Positions 2,753 to 2,936 of a stretch of 64,000 bases of DNA are shown here, in pieces. The DNA lies in the IMG/VR virus record IMGVR_UViG_3300030107_008258, positions 1 to 64,000 of that record. One strand, written 5' to 3'. The position numbers were made by a program, and so were the translations under genes. The DNA is from a virus. The notes under the pieces are model-generated. The model saw nothing but the letters and a program-made list of their open reading frames with translations. It was not told the origin of the DNA and ran no database searches. Numbering within the stretch: the stretch's first letter is position 1; every line of letters begins with the position of its first letter.

Positions 2753-2936
2753 TGCGGGTTCTTTGGGAAGTCTTTAACTCAGAAAGGAGAACCCGCAAAC
2801 AACCCTCTTTTACTGTTAAAGTTTGACGTTTGCACTTCCTAGCCCTCAATAACGACGTCATACGTTTTTTTTACTAGGCTAGTTATTTGTTCTCTCTGCT
2901 AATCAGTGAGGATAATACCTCCCTTTTATTTAGCAG
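2753..2936 (-). ncRNA. three tandem copies of a pseudoknotted 3'-end RNA element (2883-2936, 2824-2882, 2753-2821)
   Basis: Each copy reads P1-(AR)UAAAA-P2-loop-P2'-W(C/U)UGA-P1'-NCAA-P3'; all three stems covary between copies. Confidence 0.7.

Follow-up and report, generated by a model that had tools for sequence, protein, structure and literature searches.

Tandem pseudoknot-forming RNA units in phage-related DNA have been described before. The repeats of type III toxin-antitoxin systems (ToxI, CptI) are near-identical, 34-45 nucleotides (nt) long and precede a ToxN-family toxin gene. The non-coding RNA arrays of UG27 reverse transcriptases from gut phages (bioRxiv 10.64898/2026.09.22.753630) are built from units of ~135-167 nt which differ in sequence, share one fold and serve as cDNA templates beside the reverse transcriptase and two accessory genes. 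Here we report on a family of knotted RNA units in the first 64 kb (hereafter the window) of the 144,418-base IMG/VR virus record IMGVR_UViG_3300030107_008258, which is rated 90% complete. The window codes for a DnaE-type polymerase and a ribonucleotide reductase, and DNA of this phage is present in marine metagenomes. Its units share the tandem pseudoknots with the ToxI-type repeats, yet they are 54-70 nt long and copies within the genome coincide in only ~60% of alignment columns. With the UG27 arrays they have in common that one fold is maintained by diverse sequences and that close relatives gain or lose single units; unlike these arrays they are short, lie scattered after unrelated genes with no reverse transcriptase, and confine their variation to seven letters. 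The units are genuine; they belong to a hitherto uncatalogued family of knotted RNAs of about 60 bases. What is new is that all of the unit is conserved save a linker and the letter preceding a CUGA motif, which turn over wholesale between near-identical phages. From sequence comparison, this wholesale change of seven free letters suggests a fast-evolving recognition device.

Read from 5' to 3', a unit consists of a stem strand P1, an A-rich joint, P2, a loop, P2', an N-C-U-G-A joint, P1', a linker, the triplet CAA and a tail. P1, the closing stem, comprises 7-8 base pairs (bp), and the A-rich joint reads A-R-U-A-A-A-A-G in the window units. P2 (4-5 bp) always has G as its last letter, with an invariant G-C closing pair, and its loop of 6-16 nt starts with U. 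The linker between P1' and CAA measures 5-6 nt. Since the first letter of the tail, an A, pairs with the last letter of the loop, from where the helix runs on for 4-11 bp, the tail helix should stack directly on P2 to give a hairpin-type pseudoknot, the whole unit being closed by P1. In relatives the joints are looser (A-N-Y-A-A-A-A/G-G/C and N-C/G-U/C-G-A); hence the joint consensus proposed in a first-pass annotation of the window describes the units of this genome and is too strict for the family as a whole.

The record holds seven units, U1 to U4 on the minus strand and U5 to U7 on the plus strand. Direct reading of the sequence confirms the seven copies at the positions assigned in the first-pass annotation and the pairing of all helices listed there, with the amendments that the U3 pseudoknot can be extended to 11 bp ending at 2752 and that P1 of U4 contains one U-U mismatch. 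U1, U2 and U3 abut and, as had been claimed, occupy the whole gap, i.e. all 184 bases, between a 240-aa open reading frame (ORF) of unassigned function (2926-3648), which has U4 upstream and U1-U3 downstream, and a 169-aa ORF (2235-2744), all on the minus strand. In U1 (2936-2883) P1 is formed by 2936-2930 with 2902-2896, P2 by 2921-2918 with 2911-2908 and the pseudoknot by 2915-2912 with 2886-2883 (4 bp); its A-rich joint (2929-2922) contains the TAA stop of the 240-aa ORF, and its linker AGAGAA (2895-2890) precedes CAA at 2889-2887. U2 (2882-2824) pairs 2882-2876 with 2845-2839 in P1, AACG (2866-2863) with CGTT (2854-2851) in P2 and TGACGT (2860-2855) with ACGTCA (2829-2824) in its 6-bp pseudoknot, the joint being ATTGA (2850-2846), the linker GAAGTG (2838-2833) and CAA lying at 2832-2830. 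U3 (2821-2752), which is of a long-loop type, has P1 at 2821-2815 with 2778-2772, P2 at 2806-2803 with 2787-2784, a 15-nt loop and a pseudoknot of 9-11 bp (2798-2788 with 2762-2752); its linker ACTTCC (2771-2766) is followed by CAA (2765-2763) and the tail, and after the unit come TATTTAA and the ATG of the 169-aa ORF (2744).

A covariance model built from the seven copies and run on the whole 144,418-base record returned exactly these seven (34.9-61.1 bits; next-best 14.9 bits), and a model built from 134 homologues recovered the same seven; E-values of such short-calibrated models are rough. As the seven copies match their own model by construction, the case against chance is carried by the score gap and by covariation in independent homologues. 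Pattern scans and model searches raised the family to 134 copies, 128 of them distinct, in the window and 56 other viral and marine-metagenome stretches, so that the multi-copy character proposed for the element extends far beyond the record. DNA patterns specific for subtypes were used, as a loose pattern gave mostly chance matches in viral contigs, and the alignment was made through covariance models, since MAFFT alone misaligned P1.

Among the 128 distinct copies, 93.0% of the cells assigned to stems hold standard pairs, compared with 62.8% after shuffling (none of 500 shuffles as high), the copies coming partly from related contigs such that cell counts overstate independent events. If the partners are slid by 1-3 columns, only 38-54% of the cells are paired. 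Double-sided changes are found in 15 of the 17 pairs (P1 7/7, P2 3/4, pseudoknot 5/6), with the reservation that the model used for alignment imposed P1 and P2 and so favours both of these helices, while the pseudoknot columns lay outside the model. Clearly, the compensatory change postulated for P1, P2 and the pseudoknot is present. In the homologue alignment G-U pairs exceed A-C oppositions (140 versus 39), which identifies the sense strand as the folding strand. Fifteen columns are at least 90% conserved, and all other positions are paired except for the seven free letters. Judged from these comparisons, the sense-strand fold is under strong selection.

The family is restricted to uncultured marine phages. 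The subtype pattern occurs in 45 marine-metagenome stretches versus two matches in 185,579 prokaryote genomes, both of which are devoid of P1, score 17-21 bits and were judged to be chance; the first 12 kb of the window have no megablast match in the phage GenBank collection. The first-pass annotation had recognised no known riboswitch or ribozyme in the fold, and had named a match to an Rfam family and a lack of covariation as observations that would speak against it. Covariation being as described, no Rfam 15 family reaches its gathering score in the 64-kb window, the families compared including pistol, hatchet, twister, twister-sister, HDV-like and hammerhead ribozymes, riboswitches, IS605-orfB RNAs and STAXI. 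On 15 related loci tRNAs only are reported, with the IS605-orfB families unmatched. At E<=10, positions 2600-3900 attract just implausible matches to eukaryotic snoRNA or lncRNA families far under threshold. Kink-turn, loop E, HDV-like and circularly permuted pistol motifs were set aside on helix order or sequence. Literature searches turned up no description of the family, and we know of no described bacterial or phage RNA which combines a fully constrained 60-nt scaffold with wholesale-replaced free letters.

The free letters of a unit are the 6-nt linker from P1' to CAA and the single letter before CUGA. When pairs of units at least 95% identical outside the linker are compared, all other regions are 89-100% identical while the linker is at 37%, which is roughly chance. 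Two pairs of related contigs (designated by L numbers) illustrate how sharply the change is focused. L228 and L221 are 99.0% identical over 3477 nt; they differ at 12 of 14 free positions, at 3 of 100 positions in the rest of the units and at 19 of 3363 outside them (Fisher p=8e-24). L242 and L250 are 97.3% identical over 4067 nt and differ at 13 of 14 free positions, at none of the 106 remaining unit positions and at 96 of 3946 outside (Fisher p=2e-20). Four further pairs yield Fisher p values from 4e-3 to 2e-9. Turnover among phages that are 97-99% identical is not attributable to old divergence. For the window units the nearest relatives are 70-85% identical in the flanks and 93-98% in the scaffolds, with unrelated linkers. 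U1-U4 recur identically in contigs from two other samples; the patch is hence stable over short spans and not rewritten every generation. The composition of the linkers is background-like, i.e. random, with no positional preference, and templating of linkers from nearby direct or inverted copies is not significant (53 5-mers versus 45 +/- 5). A length change within a coding region is also seen between the 97%-identical contigs L242 and L250, which differ in the copy number of an ACT trinucleotide repeat just past a start codon (L242:4702-4730); the encoded proteins would then differ in the size of a Thr run.

Interfaces of molecular conflict typically show such focused turnover, examples being CRISPR spacers, the variable regions of diversity-generating retroelements and anticodon-loop variants of phage tRNAs. 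We favour, with a probability of roughly 35%, the reading that the units are RNA modules displaying a fast-evolving specificity patch. The units would then be genes for compact folded RNA modules transcribed together with the upstream gene. Their fold would provide a rigid, nuclease-resistant scaffold presenting the patch to a fast-evolving partner, either nucleic acid or protein, which might belong to the host or to a competing element. Strings of units might thereby act as multiplexed sets of specificity elements, i.e. decoys or short guides in conflict. The modules may persist as structured 3' tails of mRNAs or may be freed by the processing that frees neighbouring tRNAs, and those terminal units that combine a long pseudoknot helix with a U-rich tail could additionally end the transcript. 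The focused patch, the sporadic presence and the adjacency to tRNA and TnpB-like genes described below shift the odds towards the released small RNA or decoy, one of the roles the first-pass annotation had listed besides a 3' stabiliser, a terminator or processing site and a ribozyme. Rather doubtful to us is the more specific notion that a string constitutes a noncontiguous, rapidly rewritten code of 6+1-nt patches forming a guide or decoy set, whose reader would be TnpB-derived in some lineages and another partner here, and whose rewriting would reflect extreme diversifying selection or a dedicated diversification mechanism.

Several observations weigh against a displayed specificity patch. 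Wholesale turnover is demonstrated in relatives and not for the window's own units, whose nearest flanks are the 70-85% identical ones mentioned above. Complementarity of the linkers within the unit or within 150 nt shows no excess over shuffled linkers. An unknown mutational process directed by structure, instead of selection on a contact surface, could also account for the hypervariability. Neither the Pfam model nor a four-protein profile detects a TnpB-like gene in the window genome, and the RVT_1 reverse-transcriptase model matches nothing here or in three related records. Furthermore, the units keep closely to gene ends, promoters and convergent junctions, which a purely cis role fits equally well, and the terminal units are terminator-like. 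Two metatranscriptome runs from a sample containing the phage DNA gave one unrelated 37-nt partial match and no coverage.

As regards placement, the units point in the direction of their flanking genes on either strand and form strings of one to six units spaced 0-3 nt apart, five or six being reached in L070 and L192; in this they resemble arrays of small-RNA genes. Every string starts from 41 nt before to about 47 nt after a same-strand stop codon, which bears out the sense orientation at gene 3' ends noted in the first-pass annotation. Its additional statement that the stop lies inside TAAAA applies to U1 only, as the TGA preceding U4 is located 9 nt upstream of the unit and that of U7 falls within P1. 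This placement is what would be expected of the main rival, a purely cis-acting gene-boundary element whose pseudoknot ends the transcript and/or keeps 3'-to-5' exonucleases off its 3' end, comparable to a reinforced terminator or a REP-type stabiliser; the strings would give redundancy, and the variable patch would be incidental, resulting from escape from sequence-specific host RNases or from a mutational hot spot. We consider such an exclusive cis role unlikely, despite the following features in its favour.

U4 (3768-3699, minus strand; long-loop type) has the linker TAAAGC (3716-3711) and a 9-bp pseudoknot (3741-3733 with 3707-3699). It starts 9 nt past the stop of a 394-aa ORF and is followed by ATATTTT and, directly downstream, by the sigma-70-type promoter of the 240-aa ORF (TTGACA-17-TAAGAT, 3659-3687, minus strand). 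In unit-less relatives the upstream stop directly abuts a TTGAC-17-TAnnnT promoter, between which and the stop one unit plus ATATTTT is inserted in the window and three relatives; the unit string of L084, a contig with a UvsX-like gene, ends at the same promoter type. This early-type promoter of the 240-aa gene (TTGAC, a spacer with a CCCC run, TAnnnT) is conserved in all relatives (window 3659-3687, minus strand; L126-L144). U7 (52194-52263, plus strand; long-loop type), with the linker TACCAC (52246-52251), a 9-bp pseudoknot (52221-52229 with 52255-52263) and TTTTAT after it, exactly fills the convergent junction between a 91-aa ORF, whose stop (52196-52198) lies inside P1, and a minus-strand 1119-aa ORF ending at 52266, and its orthologues likewise occupy a junction of convergent genes. 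The loop-tail helices of terminal units exceed those of the others in length (mean 5.9 versus 4.3 bp), with the long-loop class reaching 9-11 bp followed by U-rich tracts. In minimum-energy folds restricted to nested pairs, P1 and P2 are formed in U1, U5, U6 and U7, and the tail helix in the long-loop units U3 and U4. In addition, U-rich loop starts opposite AGAA/UUCU pairs might form a triple helix of the type that protects 3' ends.

Other features of the same units do not conform to a mere structural block. Such a block does not predict that seven exposed letters change more than 30-100 times faster than the flanking DNA, nor that 15 unpaired or junction positions are near-invariant. Internal units possess only 4-6-bp tail helices and no U tract. 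U3, U4 and U7 do combine 9-11-bp helices with U-rich tracts, but the loop of the would-be terminator hairpin comprises ~34 nt, as against 3-8 nt in the canonical form, and a terminator scan makes no call. Between U3 and the start codon of the next gene there are ~10 nt and no promoter. In L128 a short-helix unit downstream of a TnpB-like gene is immediately followed by a separate canonical intrinsic terminator (GCCGGGG-GCAA-CCCCGGC, then TTTTT; L128:8705-8740, minus strand).

The remaining two units of the window, on the plus strand, form a pair. U5 (41956-42013) lies ~20 nt past the stop of a 92-aa ORF (41659-41937) and has P1 at 41956-41963 with 41993-42000, the linker TACAAC (42001-42006) and a 4-bp pseudoknot. 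In U6 (42017-42079) P1 is formed by 42017-42024 with 42058-42065, the joint is ACTAA, the linker extends over about 42066-42070 and the 6-bp pseudoknot pairs 42043-42048 with 42074-42079. Directly 3' of U6 a separate hairpin (42081-42150, plus strand) encloses a Shine-Dalgarno-like AAGGA and the ATG (42112) of an Hsp20-family gene. With a folding energy of -31.8 kcal/mol (z = -6.0; 0/200 shuffles as stable) and a core stem pairing CCCTGCTAA with TTAGCAGGG, this hairpin might act as an RNA thermometer or lock the translation of a phage heat-shock gene. Further downstream, a bidirectional terminator-like hairpin (43414-43435; ACACCC-GCTTAG-GGGTGT, with T runs on both strands) is found just before the ribonucleotide reductase gene.

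Among relatives the units occur sporadically. A homologue of the 240-aa protein is encoded on 60 viral contigs, just four of which have units at a distance of up to 6 kb, and 16 of the 20 closest viral relatives of this ORF have none within that distance. At two compared junctions the insertions are clean. One is that of U4 and its promoter; at the second, where unit-less relatives show an ATGA stop/start overlap, three units are present in the window and in L128. The string at L225:3160-3284 (minus strand) consists of two units instead of three, and the tail of its first unit resembles that of the missing middle unit and misfits its own loop; to judge by the sequence, this looks like a deletion through recombination between neighbouring units. 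Presence or absence at identical junctions and gain and loss at the level of the unit would suit a mobile or recombination cassette acting at the DNA level, folding as single-stranded DNA and spreading between gene boundaries in the manner of PeSLs, REP/BIME elements or integron attC sites. The arrangement of U4 and its promoter, which corresponds to the composite terminator/promoter layout of PeSLs (PMC4122927), and IS200/IS605-type TnpB genes close by would fit as well; the layout of stem-loop plus promoter is seen at U4, its orthologues and the L084 string and is absent from U1-U3, U5-U6 and U7. Recent mobile DNA would be expected to leave near-identical copies, whereas the copies within this genome share ~60% of columns with entirely different stem sequences. 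Moreover, the orientation of the units tracks transcription on both strands, and no transposase or integrase was identified beside the window units. A DNA cassette is thus the least probable of the explanations that we weighed.

The genes flanking units in different phages share no homology beyond true orthologues, which implies that no single gene family carries the units along; most follow unrelated genes, such as unknown ORFs, a GDP-mannose dehydratase gene and tRNAs. ORFs downstream of units have no Pfam or PHROG match. The ToxN/AbiQ family PF13958 has no match in the genome, though control genomes gave none either, and the T4-type capsid Pfam model matched none of five records, its controls likewise being without match. 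In two lineages units and tRNA genes are 2-5 nt apart: the order unit-unit-tRNA-Ile(UAU)-unit-unit is found at L199:10959-11283 (minus strand), and unit-tRNA-Met-tRNA-Arg at L128:7993-8210 (plus strand) and L219:36-176 (minus strand). Processing of such adjacent tRNAs by RNase P or RNase Z would leave units at new RNA ends.

Four related contigs contain TnpB-like genes (L070:3193-4449, plus strand; L199:9082-10317, minus strand; L192:755-2020, plus strand; L128:8825-10276, minus strand), recognised through the Cas12f1-like TNB domain of Pfam (3.7e-16). They represent two lineages 26-30% identical to each other, and all four (4/4) are followed by one to six units in sense orientation, the first of which shares 41 nt with the gene's 3' end in L070 and 25 nt in L199, an overlap also seen with omega RNAs. 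The units could accordingly be taken for cofactor or guide-like RNAs of a TnpB-derived protein, those of the window being orphans or served in trans. We regard this as improbable. The 90%-complete genome has no TnpB by the searches given above, most units stand after genes unrelated to it, and ~60 nt with an internal 6-nt variable patch contrast with a scaffold of at least 100 nt carrying a 3' guide; as noted, the Rfam IS605-orfB families do not match. The association is based on two lineages, wider searches with one protein and with the four-protein profile returning the same four contigs only, and the flanks of L128 are not syntenic with the window genome.

Size, three helices including a pseudoknot and ~15 conserved core letters are typical of small self-cleaving ribozymes, and sporadic, often tandem sites between phage genes are typical of hammerhead, twister and pistol (PMC6765202). 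A new ribozyme class would cut polycistronic phage transcripts at gene boundaries. We consider it very improbable, as no Rfam ribozyme family matches even weakly, the helix order by our reading fits none of pistol, HDV-like, twister, hatchet and hammerhead, and catalysis does not predict a hypervariable patch.

If our reading is correct, the three covarying helices in 128 distinct copies, with nothing corresponding in Rfam, would mark a new RNA family with very strong comparative support. Provided that its units display a specificity patch, the family could reveal a novel system of RNA-based recognition, or a novel mechanism of diversification, in phages abundant in the ocean; read conservatively, it would still add a new type of pseudoknotted element at transcript ends, which would serve as a compact, modular RNA part.

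With regard to secondary structure only, the units appear to share the topology of the exoribonuclease-resistant RNAs (xrRNAs) of plant viruses of the dianthovirus and polerovirus type, which were reportedly described by Steckelberg et al. in 2018, in which a stem broken by an internal loop bears a hairpin at its apex, whose loop pairs with the 3' tail. Both are short and protein-independent. The xrRNAs sit in viral 3' untranslated regions, where a eukaryotic 5'-to-3' exonuclease is blocked by them, and they have no sequence signature in common with the units. The omega RNAs of IS200/IS605 TnpB are likewise sense-encoded structured RNAs positioned where a gene ends, with partial overlap of its 3' end; in the four related contigs this gene is TnpB-like. 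Compared with these, the unit is far shorter, is repeated in strings and bears an internal 6-nt patch instead of a ~16-nt 3' guide, in a genome without TnpB. The PeSL cassettes of T4-like phages (PMC2839356, PMC4122927) are, like U4 with its promoter, small intergenic terminator/promoter composites at boundaries of accessory genes linked with indels between close relatives. PeSL stem-loops are, however, simple hairpins conserved in sequence, whereas the units are three-helix pseudoknots conserved in structure, often promoterless and arranged in strings. A conceptual likeness is finally seen with the vrRNAs of VIPR (bioRxiv 10.64898/2026.04.26.720920), in which short variable letters within constant phage repeats specify the target in inter-phage conflict. 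There a RAMP protein binds repeats 5 nt in length (GGY/NN), while here each repeat is a folded module of 60 nt.
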